Assembly: GCA_951406725.2 (NCBI GenBank)
Contig: OX597821.1
Span: 24,428,001 to 24,492,000 of the forward strand
Source of the DNA: Octopus vulgaris
Taxonomy: Eukaryota
Direction: 5' to 3'
Length of the DNA stretch: 64,000 bases
Part shown: piece by piece, positions 6,082 to 64,000 of the stretch
How positions within the stretch are numbered: the first letter of the stretch is position 1
Layout of the letters: each line of letters starts with the position of its first letter
Position numbers and translations under genes: made by a program
Notes under the pieces: generated by a model
The model's input: only the letters and a program-made list of their open reading frames with translations
The model's database searches: none
What the model was told of the DNA's origin: nothing

Positions 6082-6792
6082 AATATATATATATATACGT
6101 ACATAAATATGTGTTTTTATTTACACACACACACACACAAACAAACAAACACACACACACACACACACGTATGCACACATAATTCCAATTTTTGGAATCA
6201 TGACCTTAAATTGAACCTCTTTTGCTCTTAGACATAAAGACTACATTATTACTCTTTTATTCGTTTCCCTTAATTCTTTTGATAACGTAAAAATACTACC
6301 CACCCCACCCCTTTACTTAATTGGTGTAAAAGGAATTTTCTCATTTGTTTCCTCGTTCTGTCAACCAACTTAAGTTGGTATATAGTATCGAACTCAATTA
6401 CTATACTCCTCTGTTGGTTTCAACTCTATTATACATTTTCTTACGTAACGATTATCGTACAACGTTGTGGTGTTTGCTAGCGAAACACGTTGTAATAGAA
6501 ACATTTAAGCAAACTCTCGCGTTTTATTCAACTCCCTTATATACATAGACACACACACAGACGCACACATGTAAAGAGATAGGACAGAAAGAGAGAGAGA
6601 GGGGGAGGGAGGGAGGAAGAGAGAGAAGGACACAAGTATATCAAACACCATGCAACGTAGATTCATGGTTTATTAAAATTATCTGTCTCGAGAGGATGTC
6701 GCAATCATCAAATGGCAACAGAGTCCAGCTCCATGTTAGAAGGAGAGATGATCAAGAATTTTCCAAACTTGCCATGCAATATCACACACACA

Positions 6793-6883
<91 letters not shown>

Positions 6884-6938
6884 GCACACATTCTTAATCT
6901 TACACACAATCGTTGTAAGAGGGGAAAACGACACATAC

Positions 6939-7449
6939 CGTTATATTGTTTTGTGTAGTTCGAAGAAGATGTAAAGTTGCCTGGGCATTCACAATATTCT
7001 TTGTTTCCTTCAAAAATACAATTGCCAATTGAGCAGTCCCTCAGGCAAAGCTCAGAGCAGTATTCTCCTGTACATGGTTGTTTGGAGTAACATGACATAT
7101 ATCCGTCCTCGTCAAAACCACAAAAGCCAGTGACACACTTGTCACAAAAGTACTGTTCTTTGTAACTTAACTTACGGCACTGTAAACTACTATTATATAT
7201 TACATACATTTCACCGTTTCCACAATGAGTCGAATTCATGGTACAGATCTTGGGTGAAACAAACGAAGGTTGAGACGTCCCTTTTTTGGTGTGGTTCTCG
7301 ACGTCATCTTCAATGTTGTTATTGTTGCTGTTGTTGTTCGTGGTTGTGTTGTTGCTGTCGTTGTTCTTGACATTAACGGTGCTAGTGTTGATATACATCA
7401 GACATGCCATCAATGTGACAATAAGTAAGAGTACAGCTTCTTTCTTCAT
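6939..7449 (-). CDS. Paralogous EGF-ectodomain exon (gene B): signal peptide, one 4-Cys module, 2 degenerate EGF domains
   Basis: MKKEAVLLLIVTLMACL...SPKICTMNSTHCGNGEMYV...CECPGNFTSSSNY aligns with gene A. Donor AACG|GTATGT at 6938 is at the same position and phase (1). Flanking UTR and intron are homologous to gene A in inverted orientation. Confidence 0.8.
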
Positions 7450-7960
7450 AGTTTCTTCTACAGATATGATGCTATGTTGCTGCGATGTTGTTTGGCCGAG
7501 TGTACAACAGAGAATGATCCTGGTGCCAAGCTATTGAGGAGCACTTATCAACACAAATAATATCTGTTACACGGAAAAACACAAAAGATACACTATTCAT
7601 ATTGATGGTGGTGAGCTGGCAGTGGTGGTGGGATTAATAGTGGCGCAGGTCATTATAGTGGTATTATATATGCATGTATGTATGTATGTATGTATGTATG
7701 AAGGTAGGTATATATACTCTTTACAGTCAAATGACTGAAACAAGTAAAAGAGTTTACTCTTTTACTTGTTTCAGTCATTTGACTGTGGCCATGCTGGGGC
7801 ACCGCCTTTTAGTCGAGTAAATCGACCCCAGGACTTATTCATTGTAAGCCGAGTACTTATTCTATCGGTCTCTTTTGCCGAACCGCTAAGTTACGGGGAC
7901 GTAAACACACGAGCATGGTTGTCAAGCGATGTTGGGGGACAAACATAGACACACCACCAT

Positions 7961-9623: not shown

Positions 9624-10333
9624 TTGGGTTGTCCGGAAAGTTCGTGCGGATTTATAATAGCTTACCTTTCGACTTATTTTAGAACATGGTTGAGTCCATA
9701 AAATAGGATTTGACTACACGTCCATTTAGAACACAGTTTAAGCTATCTTTTCGGGGAAGTTTTATGTTCCTATAACCTGTGTTAATTCTGCAACCCTTTA
9801 AAATGGAAGATAAGAAAGTTCATTTTCGGCACTTGATTCTTTTCTTTTTCCGTAAAGGGAAAATACCTCACAAGCAACCAAAGAAATATGCGCAGTTTAC
9901 GGTGATGTGTCTTTATCCGAAAGAACTGTACGGAAGTGGTTTGTGAAGTTCCAAGCTGGAGATTGTAGCCTTATTGATAAAGAGCGATCAGACAGACCAT
10001 CCACTACAGATGATGAGCAAATCAAGTCATTAACTGAGAATAACCCAAATTGCACAACCCGAGAATTGGCAGAAAGCCTCAACCTATCAAAATCCGTCAT
10101 TCATGAGGACCTGGTAAAGCTTGGGTACACAAATCGCTACGATGTTTGGGTATCACATGAATTGAATGAGAAGAAACTTTTAGATCGCATTTCCATCTGT
10201 GATTCACTTTATAAACGGAATGAAAACGCGCTTTTTAAAAGCATAATTGTGACAGGTGATGAGAAATGTATTATCTACCGAAATGTTCAGAGAAAGCGAT
10301 CCTGGAGTAAGCGACATGAATCACCCTTAGACA
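9624..10333 (+). mobile_element. mariner transposon, 5' half
   Basis: TIR TA|TTGGGTTGTCCGGAAAG. TVRKWFVKF...WVSHELNE...IVTGDEK. Truncated by a Helitron-like insert at 10334. Confidence 0.9.
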
Positions 10334-10776
10334 CTAGCAAAATAAGAAATAATGATAGACTTTATCAATCGCATTCTCACTTGGAATCGATTTTTGTAAT
10401 TTTTTTCAAGACTTATACACGCCCTGATACAGTCGGTATCTACATATCAAATTTGAGCGCAATCGGATGGAGGATGCCCGAGATCCTAGAAGACACACAA
10501 ACAGACAGACAGAACGGATTTTATATAATAGATATATATATATATATATTTCTTTATTGCCCACAAGGGGCTATACATAGAGAGGACAAACAAGGACAGA
10601 CAAAGGGATTAAGTCGATTACATCGACCCCAGTGCGAATCTGGTACTTTTATTTATCGACCCCGAAAGGATGAAAGGCAAAGTCGACCTCGGCGGAATTT
10701 GAACTCAGAACGTAACGACAGACGAAATACCGCTAAGCATTCCGTCCGGCGCGCTAACGTGTCTGCCAGCTCGCCT

Positions 10777-10816
<40 letters not shown>

Positions 10817-11500
10817 GATGCATGCATGTGTGTGTGTGTATGTATGGATGCATTTGTGTGTGTGTATGTATGGATGCATGTGTGTGTGTATGTATGGATG
10901 CATGTGTGTGTGTGTGTATTTATGTGTATGCATACACGTATAAACTTATATATATGTGTGTGTACGTATGCCTATCTATGTGCAAACATATGATCAATGA
11001 CACACGTATGCGTAACTATGTATTCGATGTTCATGTCCCCAAATCTTAATGGATTAATCTAAAATATGCATTTATATATACTAATCAATAACGGTCGATC
11101 AGTAAGTTTCACTAGAAACGCCTATTACAATGGTTATGTTTACAATTTTCATCCATTCTCCATCCTCCATCCTCATCATGTCATATCTATCATTAAACAA
11201 ATAAGAATAATCTATAGGTTTTATTTTTAGTCTATTTTATCTTATTTTATTTTATACTATTTGGTTTTCTGTTTTTATGTTTTTACTGTCATTTTTATTT
11301 TTTTAATCTTTAACTTGATTTTAATTTTTATGCATACTTTATTTGTCTTCAAATTATAATATATAGTATATTCACAAATATATAAAACCCATGAATCAAA
11401 TACACTTACAATATATAGCTTTTATCCTTTTAAACCCACTTATACTCTACGCATCCTTCAAAAGAAAAATGATTACCAAAGATCCATGAGCACTATATTA

Positions 11501-18225: not shown

Positions 18226-18602
18226 CACGCCACATATCGATTCCATCCCCCACTGCTCACCCCGTGATTATTTTATCGACCACCGAAAGCATGAATGGCA
18301 AAGTAGATCTCAACGGCATTTGAACTCAGAACATAAAGACAGGATAAATGCCGTGTAGTATTTTATCAGGCCTTCTAACGATTCTGCGATTTTGCCGCCT
18401 TCATTTAGTTAGTAGTTTATCCTTCTAGCATTTAAACCTAGCCATATCCGGCCAAAATAGTGTTCCTGCTGCATGTTGTTAAAACCGGACAGAAATTGAA
18501 TTCTCAAGGTTACGCGACAATACATAAATTCAAAGCAATGAGGAAAAAGAAGCATTACATTTGACAGAGTAATTTGAATGATAAAGGGTTAAATATAGAG
18601 TA

Positions 18603-19014
18603 TCTATATAATAACCTGCTTGTTCGATCGCCCATTACACATTAGTTAGTTAGAGACGTGGAGGTGGATTGGGTGAGAGGTGGAGTAGGAGTGAGAGAGA
18701 TGGAGGAGCGAAAAAAGAAGAGAGGAAGAAGTAGAGAAAGGTGATTGAAATTAATATACCTGGGCCAAGCCAAATGGTCACGTGGTCAGCTGAAGGTGAG
18801 GCGAAGAACGAGAGAGAAAGACGACGAGAGAAAAATAGGGAGAGAGAAGTGTTAACGACGAGTGGTAGGGTGGGGGAAGGAATACTTATTACGCGGTTAA
18901 AAAGTTAGCTGAAGGGGAAAGTAGATAGAGAGAGAGAGAGAGATTCGATAGGAGACGCAGTTATATTGAGAGAGAGAGAGAGAGAGAGAGAGATTCGATA
19001 AGAGACGCAGTTAT

Positions 19015-19500: not shown

Positions 19501-19715
19501 AGCTCTACTGTAGCTTTAGATAAAGGCGCCTTTGATAACGATACTAAGTTTATTTTCTTTCAGAGTATTGTAATTACCCCGAGAAATCTTTAATAAATCA
19601 CAGGAGAAACGTGATTAAAAATTAAAAAAGCAAAGCGTGGTTTTGTCAATGTTTGCGTCTGTTTAAACAACCAAAAGTAACAACGCCAACAACCACAGCA
19701 ACAACGAAGTGAGTA

Positions 19716-19877
19716 TTAAATCAATGAAGTTTTAATCTGAATAAACAAGCTCAGCCAACCGTAACATTCCCTGTCGTATTCCTTGTCACCACTGACATAT
19801 TGGCCTTTTTTACCTCCGGGATGTACATCACTAGTTTGGAACACTGTTACTCCATAGGACAAGAGTGTCTCACATAT
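19716..19877 (-). pseudogene. Duplicate gustatory receptor-like terminal exon, copy 1 (+1 frameshift in tail, real or assembly error)
   Basis: Same acceptor context. Translates ICETLLSYGVTVFQTSDVHPGGKK..., with one extra base relative to copy 2 near an A6 run. The homologous frame ends ANMSVVTRNTTGNVTVG* (TGA 19751-53). AATAAA on the - strand at 19549-19554. Confidence 0.6.
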
Positions 19878-20287
19878 CTGGGAAAGAAAGAGAAGAAATA
19901 AGAAAGGCAGAATAAGTTCAGATTAACAGTCCAAAGTCATTTCATATTCTATTTAATAGCGAAATAAATATTCTAGGGTCATTGTACAGTGTTTGTTGAC
20001 AATTTTACAGTATGTGCGGGTCAGCGTAGATAATATGGTAGTCTCTCTAGATTATCTTGTACAGTAATTGATGATCGGTAGATTATTTGGTAGTCAGTGT
20101 TAATTATTTAGTGGTCACTGTAATTATTAATTGGTTAAATCAGGTTACTTGGTGATCAGCTTAGAGTATTTGTAAAATAATTTAGTGAAAGTATTACATT
20201 AGAAATTAAAATTAATTATCATGCAGGGAATTAAATAATATGCTTAGAATTTTTAAACATTTATTAGGAATTTCCATTAACCAATTA

Positions 20288-26330: not shown

Positions 26331-26678
26331 GATAATTTAATTATCGATTAAGAGCTGATCCGTTGTACCCAGGCTCCTCTTTCGGTACCCTTTCTGTTCA
26401 ATATGTAGCAGCGAGTATATGTGTTTATGTGTGTGTGTGTGTGTGTCTGTGTGTGTGTCAGCCAGCCCAACACCGCCATCCCATCACCACCCCGCTCCAC
26501 CATCAATATGAATCGTGTATCTTTTGTGTTTTTCAGTGTAATCTGGTGATTTTTGTATTGAGAAGTGCTCCATTAATAAGTTGGCACCGGGATCTGATGT
26601 TAATCTCACTTCATTCTCTGTTGTACACTTGACCCAGCAACATCGCAGCAACGTAGCATCATATCTGTAAAAGAAACT

Positions 26679-27822
26679 ATGAAGGAAGCAACTGTTCTGT
26701 TATATATTGTCACATTGATGGCAAGTGTGATACATATCGAAACTAGCAGCTTCATCGTCAACAAAAGAAATATCATCAGTAACGTCAACCCCAAAATCAT
26801 AACCTTTAACAAAACAGTGGATTTAATTGTTAAAGCGGCGACCTGCCACCCGGTGTGGAATGCGTGTAAAAACGGCAAAAAGTGCATTCGTGACAGTAAT
26901 GATAGAATATACAAATGCCGTTTGGTCAACAATAACAACACTGACGGCAATAACAGCAACAACAACGAGATGAATACGAACGTCACCATCGCCAACAACA
27001 ATACTGACGACATCAAGAACATTACCAACAGCAATAGCAGCAGCGATGCTATCGATGCTAGCATCATCAACAACAGCAACACTAGCAGCAGCAACATCAG
27101 CATCACTGACAACAACGAAAGCTACAGTAATAACTCCAATGGTATCATCATCAACAACAACAACAACAACAACAGCAACAGCAGCAAGAATGACAACACG
27201 AACAAGAGCACCACCGTCAGCATCATCAATGACAGCAGCAACAACAACAGAAATGAGAGTAACCACAACGACGGAAGCTTCAACCCCAAAATCATAACCT
27301 TTAACAAAACAGTGGATTTGATTGTTAAAGCGGCGACCTGCCACCCGCTGTGGAAAGCGTGTAAAAACGGTAAAAAGTGCATTCGTGAAGGTAATGATAA
27401 AATATACAAATGCCGTTTGGTCAACAATAACAACACTGACGACAACAACAACAACAGCAACAACACCACTGACAACAACGGGACCTCTGAATCTCCAACT
27501 GTTTCACCCAAAATCTGTACCGTGAATTCGACTCATTGTGGAAGCGATGAAACGTGTGTGAAATACAACAATAGTTTGCAGTGCCGTAAGTTAAGTGACG
27601 GAGAACAGTACATGTGTGATCTATGTGCCAATGGTATATGTGTGCTTGGGAAGGACGGAGATATGTCCTGTAGTTGCAAACCACAGTGGACAGGAGATCT
27701 ATGCACTGAGCCTTGTCACAGGAACTGCACAATTGGCAATTGTATTTTGTTACGATATGAAGAATATTGCGAGTGTCCAGGCAATTTTACGCCTTCTTCG
27801 AACTGCACAGAACAATACAAAG
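26679..27822 (+). CDS. EGF-TM-TIR receptor (gene A), coding exon 1: signal peptide, 3 four-Cys EGF-like modules, N/S/T-rich linkers, 2 EGF domains
   Basis: ATG at 26679 with hydrophobic N-terminus MKEATVLLYIVTLMASV. EGF patterns CDLCANGICVLGKDGDMSCSCKPQWTGDLC and CHRNCTIGNCILLRYEEYCECPGNFTPSSNC. Donor AAG|GTGAGT at 27823, phase 1. Upstream acceptor ttttcAG at 26535-26536 implies a 5'UTR exon further upstream. Confidence 0.88.
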
Positions 27823-27880
27823 GTGAGTCATTTTGCCCCACTTACAACAATTGTAAGATTATGAATGTATATATGTAATG

Positions 27881-42384: not shown

Positions 42385-42528
42385 AGGAGAAGTTATACGA
42401 CGTATTTATTTCGTACAAATCTTCAGATGCAGACGAAAATTGGGTGAAAAACATTTTGTTTCCGAAAATCGAAGATGACATGGGATTGAAAGCATGCGTT
42501 CACTTTCGGGACTTCGTCCCGGGTGAGA
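42385..42528 (+). CDS. EGF-TM-TIR receptor (gene A), TIR exon 1 (box 1 to BB loop)
   Basis: Acceptor ttttcAG (42383-84), donor A|GTAAGT (42529), 144 nt, phase 1-1. Translates EEKLYDVFISYKSSDADENWVKNILFPKIEDDMGLKACVHFRDFVPGE, with TIR box 1 (YDVFISY) and box 2 (RDFVPG). Confidence 0.93.
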
Positions 42529-44094
42529 GTAAGTATCGACTAGTGTGAGTGGAATATGCCAGTTCAACGATACTACTGGTGATCGAGTTTTATGATGTGT
42601 ACACACACACACACACACTCACACACACATACACATACACACACGCACACTTACACCCACACGCACCACCCCACACACATACACACACATACACAACACA
42701 TACACACACATACAAACACACACATACACACACACACACACACACACATACACACACGCACACTTACACCCACACGCACCCCCACACACACATACACAAC
42801 ACATACACACACATACACAACACATACACACACATACACAACACATACACACACATACAAACACACATACACACACACTTACACACGCACCCCCCACACA
42901 CATATACATGGTGAAGGTACATTTGAATGGATTCTTCCATGCTGATAAGTTCTAAAGAAGACCGAAACATGTCCATGTCTGTCCTTTTGCTACCAAACAA
43001 AGGTCAACCTTTTCGATAAACCTGTATAGTCTTCGTGTAAAGTCATACAAAGGGCAATCTGACTGGTTGTTAGAGAATCGAATAAATTTTCTTAGGGCAT
43101 TTGTTCCGACTTCCTGCCCTCTGAGTACAAATATCACGCTGGTTAACTTCGCTTTTTATTATTTCGGGGACGATACAGAAAGTATTAAGCCAGGCCTGTG
43201 AAGTGTTGGAAGTGTAAGAACCTTAGATCAGATGTTTTATGGTATTCGTTCTGGCTCTTAACGTTGTGAGTTCGAACTCCGGTAAATATAATCCATAGCT
43301 GACACTTTCAGTGACTTTAGCGGAGTTCCCGTATTACAAACATTCGAGTCAGGATTCTTGTTCGAGGATACCTATTTCTTTCCTACCCATAGGGGGCTAA
43401 ACACAGAGAGGACAAACAAGGATAGACAAAGGGATTAAGTCGATTATATCGACCCCAGTGTGTAACTGGTACTTAATTTATCGACCCCGAAAGGATGAAA
43501 GGCAAAGTCAACCTCGGCGGAATTTGAACTCGGCAGACGAAATACCGCTAAGCATTTCTCCCTGCGTGCTAACGTTTCTGCCAGCTCGCCGCCTTGTTCG
43601 AGGATACCGTCTCTCCCACCCCCAAGACCTCAGAGGATTTTTAATGGTCGTCTTGACCAAAAGATAAAAAAAGGTTTATTAATTTTCAGCGTTTGATCCT
43701 TAATTTCGTAAAGTTACCTCCCCTCCTCCCCTTTCTCAAAGAATCGCTAATAATTAATCAGTTATTGCTAAATATGTTAAACTAGCTTATTTTATACAAA
43801 ATGCTTCGCTAAATACTGGTGGATGCAACATAACTAGTTGTACAGTATCCCGCGTGCAAGGGACAGAAACAGGATGGGTTGAAACGATCGTTGTATTGAT
43901 TAAATATTCTTGCAAACTCCATTCTCCGTTGCGTCTATCCATTATAAGCTCAACGAACACCGCGGAATTCCTGAGTTAGCTCCAATGGCATTTACATCAA
44001 AACTGTGGATGACCTCAGGTAGCCTAAACGGTGAAAGTGCTTAAATCGGCATACTACTAACCATATACTCAAGGTTGAAATAATTATTAATATA

Positions 44095-47899: not shown

Positions 47900-49300
47900 T
47901 CTTGAGTTATTATCCCTATCACATCGTTAACAACTAGGTGGCGCTCGTTAGATAGATATAAAAAGACTCGCACAGCCAAGTAACACCCTCGTCTCCTCTT
48001 CCACGCGGCATGCAGCTAACTACGTCTTCTACATTTCTGTTCCTGCTACGGGACATTTTGTTAAATCTATACCATTCATGGAAGGCGGCAAGACATAAAC
48101 CTTTTCTTATTCAACTTCTATTCTGTTCTGTTGAATGTTAATATACAAGCTGTGTAAAATGCTCTCATCCCGGATCGGAATAAATACTCCATGTACATGA
48201 AGTCTTCGAAAACTCATGCGAGTTGTTGTTGTTCCTCACTGGATTAACTCCTACAGCTATCGAAGTATGACCGAACACTATATTAAATTAGTGGACTAAA
48301 AGCTCGCTAAAGTGGTGACCCCGACGTTGGAAACTATCTGCCGGATAGTTTCCTTAAAAAAGAAAAAAAAACAAAAATGCAGGAGTTACGCGTTAAAACA
48401 AAAAAAATGTATTTTAAATAGTTCGTTCTCCTTTTCGACACCCACGTGCGTGAAGATTCTGTTATTTACAACATGGCGGATGTCTTTCGTCTCCATTGCG
48501 TGACCATGTGCTTCACGCATGCATCCTAATGCTTTGCCTCGTTTTCGCCTGGATTTTGCCCTTTCGCCGCCATTGCTCAACATACAAATTTGGAGTGAGA
48601 CTACGAGTCACGAAGATTTTGTCGGACTGCGCCTGTTTGTTTCTGTCAATTTCGACTTCAGTCGCAATGACTTCAGTCACCGTTACCAGCTTTTAGTGGT
48701 AATGTGCGGCTCTGATTTTCTCAGTTGGACTCGTACTTTGCGGCGAGTGACAGTTCGTCCGAGCGGCTGCAACTGCATGTTCTACTGAGTTCCATCCCTC
48801 CATCACTAGCGAATAGTCTCAAGGATATCATCATTAACACTGCTAAAGATGCCACGTATTCATCCGTCAAGAGAGAGATTATTCACAGGACGGCCGTACC
48901 CGAGACTAAGCGTTTCCGCACGCTAATTTGTGACAAATATTTGGATGGCAGGACGCCGACTCAGCAGCTGCGCAGAATGAGAGAGCTCACCGAGGATTCT
49001 TCCAAAGACAACTCCTTGCTAAAACAGCTCTTCTTCTCCTGTTTGTCTTCGCACGTGCAGGGGATACTCACCTCTAGCATGGACGTCACTCTCATCGACC
49101 AGTTGGCCTTGTCTGCCGATAGAATTTTGGAGTACACTGGAAATGGAACTGCGGACAACAAATTGGCTGCTGTTTCTCGTTCTCCCTCAACAGTCGTAGC
49201 TTCATTTCAGCAGCCTGATTCCACTCAGGCGGACACTCTGCAGGCTATTAGGGAACTTACCGAGCAGGTGAAGAACTATAGTCGGGTCCTGAACAATGAC
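47900..49300 (+). mobile_element. Ty3/Gypsy LTR retrotransposon 5' fragment (LTR remnant, tRNA-Trp PBS, gag)
   Basis: PBS TGGTGACCCCGACGT at 48313-48327. Gag-like LDSYF...LKDII...YSSVKREII...RTPTQQLRRMREL...LKQLFFSCLSSHVQGIL...LALSADRILE. Confidence 0.85.
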
Positions 49301-49884
49301 GGTGTCGAAATCTGTAAGATACTTCTTCGCAGGAGTCAAAATTTATAATTTAAATTATGTGCTTACCCTGGTTCAGGCTTTCTGCTCGAATCTCGATTCC
49401 GTAGCGTCAGCTCTCTTCGATGCGCTAAGACATATATCAAGTGGTTAATGTTATCGTAGGTTGTTTTCATACCTCTACCCTTAGGGTCTTCAAATATCTG
49501 TTAGCGATTTCATTTACTGCTGCTAATTCTAATTTACTGGATTTCAACTGACCGTTCTGTCTGTCCATCAGTGGAAGAGGGATGACTATCTTCAATGGTT
49601 AGTTACTATGAATTGGATATCTATTGGTTAGATGTATCAATTTACATCTGATAATACGTTTCGTTAATTCGTTTAATTGTTTTGGGTGAAAAAAATCTAA
49701 TGCTTGGTGTTTAGAGTTCCACAATGTTTTTTTAGCCTTCTAGGAGTCAGTTTGCATATATGCCTCATATAAATTTTTGGTAAGTTCGTAAGTTCATTAT
49801 ATACAGTGATTGTAGTCGCGATTAGGTTGAAGGAGACTTATACGTTTATCCATGATGACTTTGGCTATTCACTAAAATAATATA

Positions 49885-51171
49885 TCGGGTTGAGTAAAAA
49901 AGTAAGCAACGTTTTGAATCATGAAGAATTAGTACCGGATTTTTGCAGAGTTTTGAATGTTCTTTTTTTTTTTTTAACATTTTTCACAATTGTCTGATAA
50001 TTCAGGCATAGACTTGCCCAAATGCATCAATAAATTAACATTGATATATTTTTTCACCATTGTTACAATCATCTGAAATGGAACTGTCAAAGCGCGATAT
50101 TCGAGCAATTTTGCTATTCAACTTCAAAATAAGGACGTAAAGCAGCTGAAACTGCTCGTGATATCAACGAAACGTTTGGTGAGGAAACGACCAGTGAGTG
50201 GTCAGCTCAAAAATGGTTTAAACGATTTCGCAGTGGAGTACTGAGTCTTAAAGATCGTTAGTGAAGTGAACGTCTATCTGTCATCGATGATGGTCAATTA
50301 AAGACCGTCATTGAGAAAGATCCACGTACAACCACTCGAGAGCTGGCAAAAGAACTTCAAGTTAGCCAGAAAACTGCCGGCAACCATTTGCATGCGATCA
50401 GAAATTCAAAAAAGCTCGACAAATGGGTACCACACGATTTGAATGAAAATCAGAAAATGCGCAGATATGAAATTTGCTCGTCGCCTCTTCCCCGTAACCA
50501 GACCAAACCATTTCTCGACCGTATTGTAACTTGCGATGAAAAGTGGATTCTGTACAACAATAAAAATGTTCTTCACAGTGGCTGGACCAAAATAAAGCAC
50601 CGAAAACCTTCCCTAAACCCGAGCTCTTCAAAAAGAAAGTTATGGTGACTGTTTGGTGATGTACTGCTGGACTCGTCCACTATAATTTCTTAAAACCCGG
50701 AAAAAACCATTACTGCGGAAACATATTGCCATGAAATTGCCAAAATGAACGAAAACCTGCTGCTCCTCCGCCCCAGACTGAGGGCCAATCCCTTTTCATG
50801 ACGATGTTCGACTACACGTTTCACTAATGACGCACCAGAAGTTGAGGGAACTTGTCTTCGAGTTCTTTCCCACCAAGCTTATTCCCCAGAACCTTCTCCT
50901 ACCGACTACCACTTTTTCAAGCACCTTGATGGTTTCCTGCGAGAGAAGGAGTTCAGAAATCAAACTGAGGCTGAAAGTGTGTTCGAAGAGTTCCTCAGCT
51001 CCAGAACTCAAGATTTTTATGTTACCGGAATAAACAAACTTGTAACTCATTGGCAAAAATGTTGTGCTGATTGTAATGGTACTTACTTTGATGAATAAAA
51101 TTACCGCATTGTTGAAATATATTGTGATGAATTTCATGCTTCAAAACGTTGTTTACTTCTTACTAAGCCTG

Positions 51172-61754: not shown

Positions 61755-62925
61755 ATCGACTCCATCCTCCATTGTTCAACTCGTACTTATTTTATCGACC
61801 CCCGAAAGCATGAAAGGCAAAGTAGATCTTAACGGCATTTGAACTCAGAACTTAAAGACAGGATAAATGCCGTGTAGTATTTTATCAGGCCTTCTAACGA
61901 TTCTGCGATTTTGCCGCCTTCATTTAGTTAGTAGTTTATCCTTCTAGCATTTAAACCAGCCATATCCGGCCAAAATAGTGTTCCTGCTGCATGTTGTTCA
62001 ACGCGGACAGAAATCGAATTCTCAAAGTTACGCGACAATACATAAATTCAAAGCAATGAGAAGAAAGAGGCATTACATTTGACAGAGTAATTTGAATGAT
62101 AAAGGTTTAAATATAGAGTATTTATTATAGCTTTGGATACAGAAACTTTTGATAACGATACCAAGTTTATTCGCTTTCAAAGAATGTTACAAGAAATCTT
62201 TAATGAATTACAGAAGAAAACGTGATTAAAACTTAAAAAAGGAAAGTGAGATTTTGTCAACCTTTGCTTGTTTAAACAACTAAAAGTAACATTGACGGCG
62301 ACAACAACCACAGCAACAACGAAGTGAGTATTAAATCAATGAAATTTTAATCTGAATGAACAAACTCAGCCAAATGTAGCATTCCCGGTCATATTCCCTG
62401 TGAACGCCGTCATATTGGCATTTTTATCACATGGATGTACAGAACTAGTTTGGAACACTATTACTCCATAGGACAAGAGAGTCCCAGATATCTGGAAAAG
62501 AAAGAGAAGAAATAAGAGAGGCAAAACAAGTTCAGATTAACAGTCCAAAGTCATATCATATTCTATTTAATAGCGAAATAAATATTCTAGGGTCATTGTA
62601 CAGTGTTTGTTGACAATTTAACAGTATGTGCAGGTCAGTGTAGATATGATGGTCACTCTAGATTAGAGTTCACATTGTACAGTAACTGGTGATCAACAGA
62701 TTATTTGGTAGTCAGTGTTGATTATTTAGTAGCGAGTTTAGGTGCTAATTGGTTAAATCAAACTATTTGGTCGTCGGCTTAGATTATTTGCAAAATAATT
62801 TAGTCAGAGTATATGACATTAGAAATACGAGAAAATTAATCAAAATTAATTATCATGCAGGGAATTAAATAACACGCATAGAATTTCTAAACAATTATTT
62901 ATTAGGAATTAAATTAACCAATTTT
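61755..62925 (+). repeat. Direct segmental duplication, copy 2 (pairs with 18240-20286)
   Basis: Shared strings such as gaaagcatgaa-ggcaaagtagatct, ccatatccggccaaaatagtgttcctgctgcatgttg and gttcagattaacagtccaaagtcat. Confidence 0.9.
62366..62491 (-). CDS. Terminal exon of a putative gustatory receptor-like (7TM chemoreceptor/ion-channel superfamily) gene, copy 2
   Basis: Long pyrimidine tract and CAG acceptor on the - strand (62492-62520). The phase-0 frame gives ISGTLLSYGVIVFQTSSVHPCDKNANMTAFTGNMTGNATFG*, matching the TM7 (T/S)YhhhhhQ motif. AATAAA on the - strand at 62166-62171. Confidence 0.7.
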   Translation of the reverse strand: MSGTLLSYGVIVFQTSSVHPCDKNANMTAFTGNMTGNATFG

Positions 62926-62979
62926 TTTAAAGTATTGATTTATCAACTATTGAACTTTGTAACTATTGATTGCCTAAAC

Positions 62980-63217
62980 CAGAGCTTCTCAACCATTTAA
63001 CGCTTTTGGTTTCTATTTTACTCAGGTGGACCCGCTCATGTTTAAAAACATCCCTTTATATTTTTATAATTAAATATTGTTAGGACCTGTATGAATAAAT
63101 TGTTGAAATATTTTGTGTTTAGTAGAAGTATAACCAAATTATTGTGCATTCATTTTAACTTCAAAATCTTATATGGACCCCTAAGAGCCTTACGGATCCC
63201 ACGGCTGAGAACCACTG
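62980..63217. mobile_element. hAT/Charlie-like MITE
   Basis: CAGAGCTTCTCAACC ... GGCTGAGAACCACTG termini; a second similar start CAGAGGTCCCCAAC at 63351. Confidence 0.6.
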
Positions 63218-63547
63218 CTCCAAACTACTCATTTCTTCTGTATCGGATTGTCTTAATATTTATTTGTCTAACAACTTTATACGGAAAAAAAAATCATCAT
63301 TATTAATGGTTAAGATTTCTCACTTGCGAATAGTATATTATAGCCTAAAGCAGAGGTCCCCAACTACCGGACCCGGACCAGGATTGCACCGGGGTTAATT
63401 TGAACCCAGGCCGCACACAAAGAATATATCTTAATAGTTTGTTTCTATTTTATAGACCACCGCAGTCTACATGGTGGTTTATTTTGAAAAACTAACACTT
63501 CTGTCCGTGCCACTTACCCGCACCTGCCTGAAACAGTTTGTAAATAA

Positions 63548-63676
<129 letters not shown>

Positions 63677-64000
63677 AACTAACCTAAAAGCCGCACTCCG
63701 TGAGGACATTTAAGTTGGCTCCTGCTGGGGGTTAATTGAAGAGAACTAATTATTATCACTATAATACGTCTATTATGACTATATGCCCCGGCAGTGTTTG
63801 ATTAGAAGTTAACGACAGGTGAGAATTAATTCTGTAATACAATCATTCTGTGGTTCCAGTCCCTGTTTAATTTCCAACTGTTGGCCAAATTGTACTAAAG
63901 TTCTCATCTCAACGTAAAATTAATGAAGCGAATGACATTTATCTCCCCCTTGATCTCTGACGTCATCTGACAAGCGCCAACCAAGATGGCATTAATCAGG

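Follow-up and report, generated by a model that had tools for sequence, protein, structure and literature searches.

A separate promoter for each first exon is a property of the insect type of alternatively spliced gustatory receptor (Gr) locus. Alternatively spliced Gr/Or loci are described from insects, the largest Gr locus reported for the cockroach Blattella germanica having 13 isoforms, Gr60a-m (PMC6175461), and in insect GRs the pocket is placed within S1-S6 and the pore is said to be lined by S7b (PMC12635824). Gr-like proteins (Grls) are known from molluscs as well (PMC7746228, PMC5850775). For cephalopods and gastropods, the chemoreceptor classes that a 2024 bivalve paper names as studied are chemotactile receptors, GPCRs and ionotropic glutamate-type receptors (PMC11682238); the chemotactile receptors, derived from nAChRs, are a clustered, octopus-expanded ionotropic family with 26 members in O. 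bimaculoides (PMC11526382, PMC9068888). Variable first exons and shared final exons are also the splicing logic of vertebrate clustered protocadherins, which are unrelated proteins, and coleoid protocadherins are reported to have expanded by whole-gene duplication instead (PMC9068888). The splicing design and molluscan Grls are therefore already known, and some octopus proteins are in the databases, where a few bear the automatic names 'Gustatory receptor' or 'Odorant receptor'. Searches of openly readable full texts returned no paper that describes Grls as a family in octopus or this architecture outside insects; in the main texts, 'octopus' has no occurrence in PMC5850775 and PMC7746228, nor 'gustatory' in PMC9068888 and PMC10700109.

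The locus described here was reached through its last exon, in a 64,000-nucleotide stretch of Octopus vulgaris DNA (the window). Like the insect spliced Gr loci, it has tandem long first exons and one set of short shared final exons, and transcripts join different first exons to the shared ones, as seen for 2 of 6; unlike them, it belongs to a mollusc, in which nearly the whole repertoire found uses this design, in two places on one contig, and the largest array numbers 29 first exons against the 13 isoforms of the cockroach (PMC6175461). With the animal Grl/7TMIC proteins (PMC7746228) the family shares a predicted fold, the (T/S)Y..Q motif and 3' introns, but it is large (about 68 intact first exons), its motif ends in QT, and most tested members of its second cluster miss the Pfam family 7tm_7. 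Limpet Grls, judged by locus tags only, appear to be tandem whole genes, whereas those of octopus form shared-cassette arrays. The chemotactile receptors have an unrelated fold and are whole-gene duplicates whose function is experimentally established; the present count of Grl first exons, candidates known from sequence in a different Octopus species, is more than twice as high. Coleoid protocadherins having expanded by another route (PMC9068888), the present locus shows that the variable/constant design is nevertheless in use in octopus, in a different family.

Results

The terminal exon and its gene

The first-pass annotation had proposed that a strong - strand acceptor and a 41-codon phase-0 exon mark the end of a Grl gene, its remaining exons being located past position 64000. 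The AG does end at 62492, and 62491-62366 translates into 41 codons and a stop as written (exon C3; Table 1); phase 0 was borne out by comparison with the upstream exon C2. A lack of spliced reads using this acceptor had been named as a refutation; contigs from 4/4 runs (three studies) cover C3 from 62102 or 62130, stop exactly at 62492 and then run on into C2, with no mismatch on C3 in three contigs and one in the fourth. None of the runs is recorded as RNA, and it is the exact joining at exon borders that shows the contigs to be spliced transcripts. Among 145 acceptor-led frames of the window (at least 15 codons, with at least 15 pyrimidines upstream), (T/S)Yhhhhh(Q/K/E) near the start was present in one, C3 itself; with this control and the exact splice joins in all four runs, a chance exon was rejected, and 62366-62491 is confirmed as a genuine spliced terminal exon. 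An AATAAA exists downstream, as the annotation had noted, but all four contigs extend beyond it (3' ends 62102, 62106, 62130 and 62130), so that the second AATAAA, next to which a repeat starts near 62125, is the likelier candidate for the poly(A) signal.

The motif had been given as TYhhhhhQ(F). Its Y and Q are present, but it reads SYGVIVFQT, with T rather than F in the last place. The positions (T/S), Y and (Q/K/E) are occupied by S434, Y435 and Q441, as in 17/17 terminal exons, whereas at the final position, the hydrophobic gate (F/L/M), each of the 17 octopus exons has T. Because that position is reported as diagnostic but not definitive, some GRs/GRLs diverging at motif positions (PMC7746228), the QT ending was filed as a variant. 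The three N-x-T sequons announced for the tail are at full-protein residues 453, 460 and 464, and sequons in the C-terminal tail occur in 11/13 proteins checked.

Table 1. Features of the Grl locus, its duplicated 3' end and the second cluster. Coordinates above 64000 continue the numbering of the window; the position on the contig (C8) is the value plus 24428000.
Feature	Position	Strand	Description
Variable exon V1	122493-121372	-	374 codons from first Met
Variable exon V2	114055-112955	-	367 codons from first Met
Variable exon V3	101224-100202	-	317 codons from first Met
Variable exon V4	95197-94175	-	317 codons from first Met
Variable exon V5	88755-87712	-	324 codons from first Met
Variable exon V6	75046-74036	-	315 codons from first Met
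Constant exon C1	67301-67230	-	phase 0
Constant exon C2	66718-66632	-	phase 0
Intron C2-C3, part in window	62492..64000	-	phase 0, 4,140 nt whole; 62492-62520 hold the AG acceptor and its polypyrimidine tract
Constant exon C3, coding part	62366..62491	-	S7b pore helix with SYGVIVFQT, 26-residue tail, three N-x-T sequons, stop
3' UTR of C3	62102..62365	-	AATAAA at 62171-62166 and 62126-62121; contig ends 62102-62130
Duplicated terminal exon C3'	19716..19877	-	part of a copy some 800 bp long (19511-20286), 82% identical
Cluster B	C8:106,233,130-107,284,130	both	83 variable exons (62 intact), 14 complete constant cassettes

Extension of the sequence to the right, by 200 kb, and construction of the gene, as the annotation had advised, yielded C2, C1 and six paralogous long open exons (V1-V6) on the same strand, upstream of the single C1-C2-C3 set. 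In each of the six V exons the reading frame stays open to the border GCT|GTA(T/C)GT, and the introns V|C1, C1|C2 and C2|C3 are all of phase 0. A full-protein search of the genome gave nine matches, namely the six V exons and one each of C1, C2 and C3; C1 and C2 are single copy in that search and in 264 kb, and no further V exon was found in 141 kb beyond V1. An upstream ATG is kept in V1 and V2 and lost in V3-V5. A database protein of Octopus vulgaris matches V1 and C3 at 100% and also contains C1 and C2. The idea of a Grl gene continuing past the window was thus upheld by the spliced protein, by Pfam 7tm_7 and by the predicted Orco/Gr fold. The gene had also been called hidden, but it is not entirely so: RefSeq contains orthologous loci, labelled 'uncharacterized', with several isoforms, and UniRef names one O. 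bimaculoides entry of the locus 'Odorant receptor'. Neither the sharing of C3 by six alternative first exons nor a larger second cluster had been foreseen.

Alternative splicing

Runs X1 and X2 each have one contig with C3-C2-C1, which continues for another 496 and 1,294 letters, respectively. The 30 letters past C1 are exactly those of V1, with 3-10 mismatches to the other five V exons, which gives a V1-C1 intron of 54,070 nt that skips V2-V6. In X4 and X5 the corresponding 30 letters match V5 exactly, with one mismatch to V3/V4 and four to V1; another animal having been sampled, and V3/V4 differing by that one mismatch, this first exon is called 'V3-5 type'. The contig of X4 ends one base before the site that distinguishes V4 from V3 and V5, which fits a branch in the graph, although alleles could also explain it. 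Two different first exons are joined to the common constant exons, transcript joins being seen for 2/6 first exons (four runs, three studies); at contig depths of 3.7-9.8, which are low, expression could not be ranked. The V1-C1 join, together with transcripts that skip five V exons to reach a single cassette, led us to reject separate complete genes at the window locus.

In RefSeq, where both loci are 'uncharacterized', isoforms X1-X3 of O. bimaculoides LOC106874590 have distinct N-terminal parts and one C-terminus, and isoforms X1-X5 of O. sinensis LOC118764548 differ in their N-terminal part. Isoform X2 of the latter (P0004) looks chimeric, its variable region resembling V1 N-terminally and V2 C-terminally; it appears to be a model artefact, an internal splice or a gene conversion.

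Family membership and predicted fold

The search for 7tm_7 proposed earlier placed 6/6 spliced isoforms at 31.8-57.7 bits against a cut-off of 26.6; four C3-bearing proteins reached 48.5-57.7 bits and the spliced protein about 50 bits, and the 41 residues of C3 alone matched no Pfam family. As a genome search, 7tm_7 was nearly blind, giving 36 matches at E<=10 with the cluster-B exons absent; its sole match over the cut-off lies on the contig labelled C2 (not exon C2) and has an internal stop, and V2, the runner-up, stayed below the cut-off. Of 21 PDB matches to a profile built from 36 relatives, 16 are Orco/OR/Gr (best E 2.5e-16).

Comparison of an AlphaFold model (pLDDT 76.6) with known structures, also suggested in advance, gave 23 Foldseek matches at E<=0.001, all those listed being OR/Gr. 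The model has six long helices followed by S7a (393-406), a hairpin near 413-419 and S7b (422-443), that is, the seven-helix Orco/Gr fold with S7 split in the same way. With VIA-align it superposes on Orco at Z 31.0 (rmsd 3.6, 371 residues aligned), and eight OR/Gr chains fall at Z 24.8-31.0 over 314-371 residues, the next chain at 8.6. The octopus protein shares the S7a-hairpin-S7b arrangement of the insect Orco/OR/Gr tetrameric channels (PDB 8z9a, 6c70, 7lic, 8jm9, 8jme, 8vc1) and may, by prediction, also form a tetramer via anchor and S7b, but it is only 9-14% identical to them, has T at the gate and, at the window locus, a glycosylatable C-terminal tail. GPCR entries were weak in the fold searches, and that identity was rejected. 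The fold match implies, for the model, an intracellular N-terminus and an extracellular C-terminus; the V/C1 junction follows residue 374, inside S6.

Four copies of residues 225-448 were predicted to assemble with a score of 0.68, against 0.00 for the best of three controls, with at least 91% of contacts agreeing between runs and pLDDT of at least 74; 36/45 named interface residues of one copy fall in the constant exons. The mark used is reached by 21/30 solved pairs and 0/23 single chains (eukaryotes 17/29, animals 7/16), but by only 1/7 without an older relative, so the pass may reflect likeness to the solved Orco/Gr tetramers. The products are predicted to be tetrameric channels with a pore lined by S7b.

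A second cluster on the same contig

A distant octopus match to C8:106.2-107.3 Mb led to cluster B (1.05 Mb; 1.2 Mb examined), where 83 V-exon 3' ends were detected with an iterated profile, 80 with a phase-0 donor (63 GTAAGT). An exon was counted as intact if it has a start Met, a donor, a length of 280 codons or more and a single open frame across the profile; the intact exons have open frames of about 300-390 codons, and 21/83 are broken. With or without splice filters, 16 C2 and 15 C3 copies form the 14 complete pairs, and an unfiltered six-frame search (71,576 frames) found no C2 or C3 inside the large arrays. C1 is divergent, and its profile, in an incomplete search, found only a handful of plausible copies. 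The largest array spans 266 kb with 29 V exons, 19 of them intact; in another, 12 of 13 are intact, and both arrays are mostly outside repeated units. Three cassettes are incomplete, lacking a detected C2 or C3, and a weak extra C2 (E 0.71) could split one array. Evidence for splicing in this cluster is genomic and from RefSeq models, among them O. sinensis LOC118764608 X1-X3, in which three different exons of the 29-exon array are joined to one cassette.

Aligned with the eight OR/Gr chains named above, a model of a cluster-B protein scores Z 22.9-18.0 (next 8.0), and its best Foldseek E is 6.6e-4. Pfam 7tm_7 was matched by 1/7 cluster-B queries, three other cluster-B proteins carrying a precomputed 7tm_7, and the cluster-B profile matched Gr43a in the PDB at only E 0.075-0.11. 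The match between the alignment profiles A2 and A1 (100%, E 1e-39) is not independent, P0025 and P0030 being in both alignments.

At 106.76-106.98 Mb there are near-identical tandem units with many broken exons, including eight terminal exons (106.80-106.97 Mb) identical in peptide, which may reflect a recent duplication or an assembly error. One intact V exon (106,755,485-106,756,618, +) is without a nearby cassette on its own strand; its grouping in the tree with five exons at 107.25-107.28 Mb suggests that the - strand block between them was inverted. Five proteins searched against the genome gave no copies outside the window locus and cluster B, the counts being lower bounds. In total there are about 68 intact first exons at the two loci on one contig.

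Duplicated 3' end and other features of the window

The 3' end of the Grl locus is duplicated 42.6-43.5 kb downstream of the original, 62128-62923 being the source counterpart of the C3'-bearing copy and a second piece (18236-18607 against 61755-62125) being 94% identical. In C3' a Gly ahead of the motif is changed to Glu, and the tail is frameshifted and lacks sequons; this exon may be decaying. It is the last exon in 4/5 O. sinensis RefSeq isoforms, and joins to it were found in none of the transcript contigs of four runs, which were selected for containing C3.

Elsewhere in the window, two long single frames, 26604-27875 (+) and 6739-7530 (-), have similar signal-peptide-like starts and resemble a pair of paralogs, secreted or membrane-bound, encoded on opposite strands; in Pfam the former has weak EGF-like matches below the cut-off and the latter none. 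The start of a TIR domain at about 42395-42545 (+; Pfam TIR E 0.0024, below the cut-off) is likely an exon of a + strand gene between C3 and C3'. Mariner/Mos1-type transposase remnants lie at 9856-11046 (+; HTH_48 match) and 50265-50645 (+; judged by eye), and a DUF7041 frame at 48716-49345 (+). Beyond the window, an open frame of 462 codons (221135-222520, -) that has no relation to the Grl exons is probably an exon of the next gene.

Relatives and selection

At E<=0.001 there were 44 representatives, of which 22 were looked up: four belong to the octopus window locus and 18 are more distant, those named being cuttlefish, octopus, bivalve, gastropod, nemertean and tardigrade proteins. The nearest relatives outside cephalopods are bivalve and gastropod proteins (20-28% identity). 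Two proteins of the cuttlefish Acanthosepion pharaonis on one contig, known from gene models and not from reads, have an identical 87-residue C-terminus starting late in S6, whereas only 68/178 residues of their N-terminal parts are identical, so that these models follow the octopus design; the cuttlefish motif also ends in QT. In a quick tree (83 rows, SH-aLRT support only), V1-V6 and three O. bimaculoides rows form one clade (SH-aLRT 99), sister to two decapodiform-type exons, one of them named cuttlefish (SH-aLRT 95). As part of the broader reading given in the Discussion, we suggest tentatively that the variable/constant design may predate the octopus-cuttlefish split. Because the first-exon clades are cephalopod-specific, in a tree without named insect rows, the arrays likely arose independently of those of insects.

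Among V1, V2, V5 and V6, identity is 0.80-0.85 in the cytosolic S4/S5 and 0.21-0.52 in the outer helix halves. Values of dN/dS are 0.38-0.57 in 13/15 pairs of the window locus, and medians in cluster-B arrays are 0.64 (168 pairs, 21 above 1), 0.51 (54 pairs) and 0.49 (18 pairs), for pairs limited to dS 0.05-1.5. Against O. bimaculoides, the constant core is identical at 65/68 residues and V1 at 307/374. From these comparisons, the approximately 68 intact modules appear to be under purifying selection while diverging in the predicted pocket.

Discussion

By itself C3 is an ordinary Grl last exon, and its value lies in the array-encoded family reached through it. The explanation that we favor, and consider probable, is that C3 is the shared last exon to which at least two of the six first exons are spliced, and that the products are predicted tetrameric ligand-gated cation channels, likely chemoreceptors. 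Following what is described for insect GRs, each first exon probably has its own promoter, and it would be spliced to the next cassette downstream, as is shown for two exons and modeled in RefSeq for others. By the same comparison, S1-S6 with an outward ligand pocket would come from the first exon, and the constant exons would supply the last part of S6, the S7a anchor and the S7b helix of the pore. With the pocket of insect GRs placed in S1-S6 and their pore lined by S7b (PMC12635824), the pocket likely belongs to the variable exon and the anchor and pore to the constant ones, in keeping with the conserved cytosolic S4/S5 and the diverged outer helix halves. Given variable S1-S6 and a shared pore module, isoforms would differ in ligand, share assembly and could co-assemble, and a new receptor would arise by the duplication of a single exon.

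That octopus Grl channels act as chemoreceptors is, by analogy, a good probability. Chemoreceptor families usually evolve by birth-and-death and contain many broken copies. Such a pattern is seen in cluster B (21/83 broken), and together with the concentration of divergence in the outer helix halves it argues against a reading that accepts the same structure and fold but assigns the window locus a non-chemosensory role (metabolite, temperature or development), leaving cluster B alone, or neither locus, as chemosensory. We regard this as unlikely, though it is the most serious of the alternatives: the early-branching NvecGrl1 is reported in body patterning (PMC5850775), Gr28b(D) is described as thermosensory (PMC11526382), and the window locus is the older and more stable one, being sister to the cuttlefish locus and having orthologous first exons in O. 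bimaculoides.

It is far less probable that the arrays are mostly leftovers, with one or two first exons used per cassette and the rest silent or pseudogenes, partly inflated by the assembly. Joins seen for V1 and the V3-5-type exon only, the broken cluster-B exons, the peptide-identical terminal exons in near-identical tandem units and the loss of the upstream ATG in V3-V5 would all suit such a view, but 62/83 frames are open, the donor is kept in 80/83, median dN/dS between diverged paralogs is 0.49-0.64, RefSeq models of two other species use several different first exons, and the 13- and 29-exon arrays are largely outside the repeated units. Least credible of all is that each long exon is a separate gene with small 3' exons of its own that escaped detection. 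The divergence of C1, with few plausible copies in cluster B, and the three cassettes without a detected C2 or C3 could be read in that way; at the window locus, however, it is refuted by the V1-C1 join and by transcripts that bypass five V exons to reach the single cassette, and the absence of any C2 or C3 within the large arrays of cluster B, among 16 and 15 copies, speaks against it there.

The favored explanation of a shared last exon in a family of likely chemoreceptor channels can be carried further, with considerably more reserve. Octopus may have a second large, as yet undescribed ionotropic chemoreceptor system of about 70 Gr-like modules, in arrays of up to 29, outnumbering the chemotactile receptors and serving smell or taste in the olfactory organ, suckers or lips, with diversity arising from promoter choice and hetero-tetramers, a design older than the octopus-cuttlefish split and convergent with that of insects; we hold this whole, at somewhat under even chances, as a possibility. 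Such a family is easily missed, because annotation collapses the arrays to single 'uncharacterized' loci and most tested cluster-B members fall below 7tm_7. A variable/constant Gr design known from insects is here seen in a distant phylum, one probe per constant cassette could map whole arrays, and the approximately 68 intact Gr-like modules are concrete candidates for octopus smell and taste.
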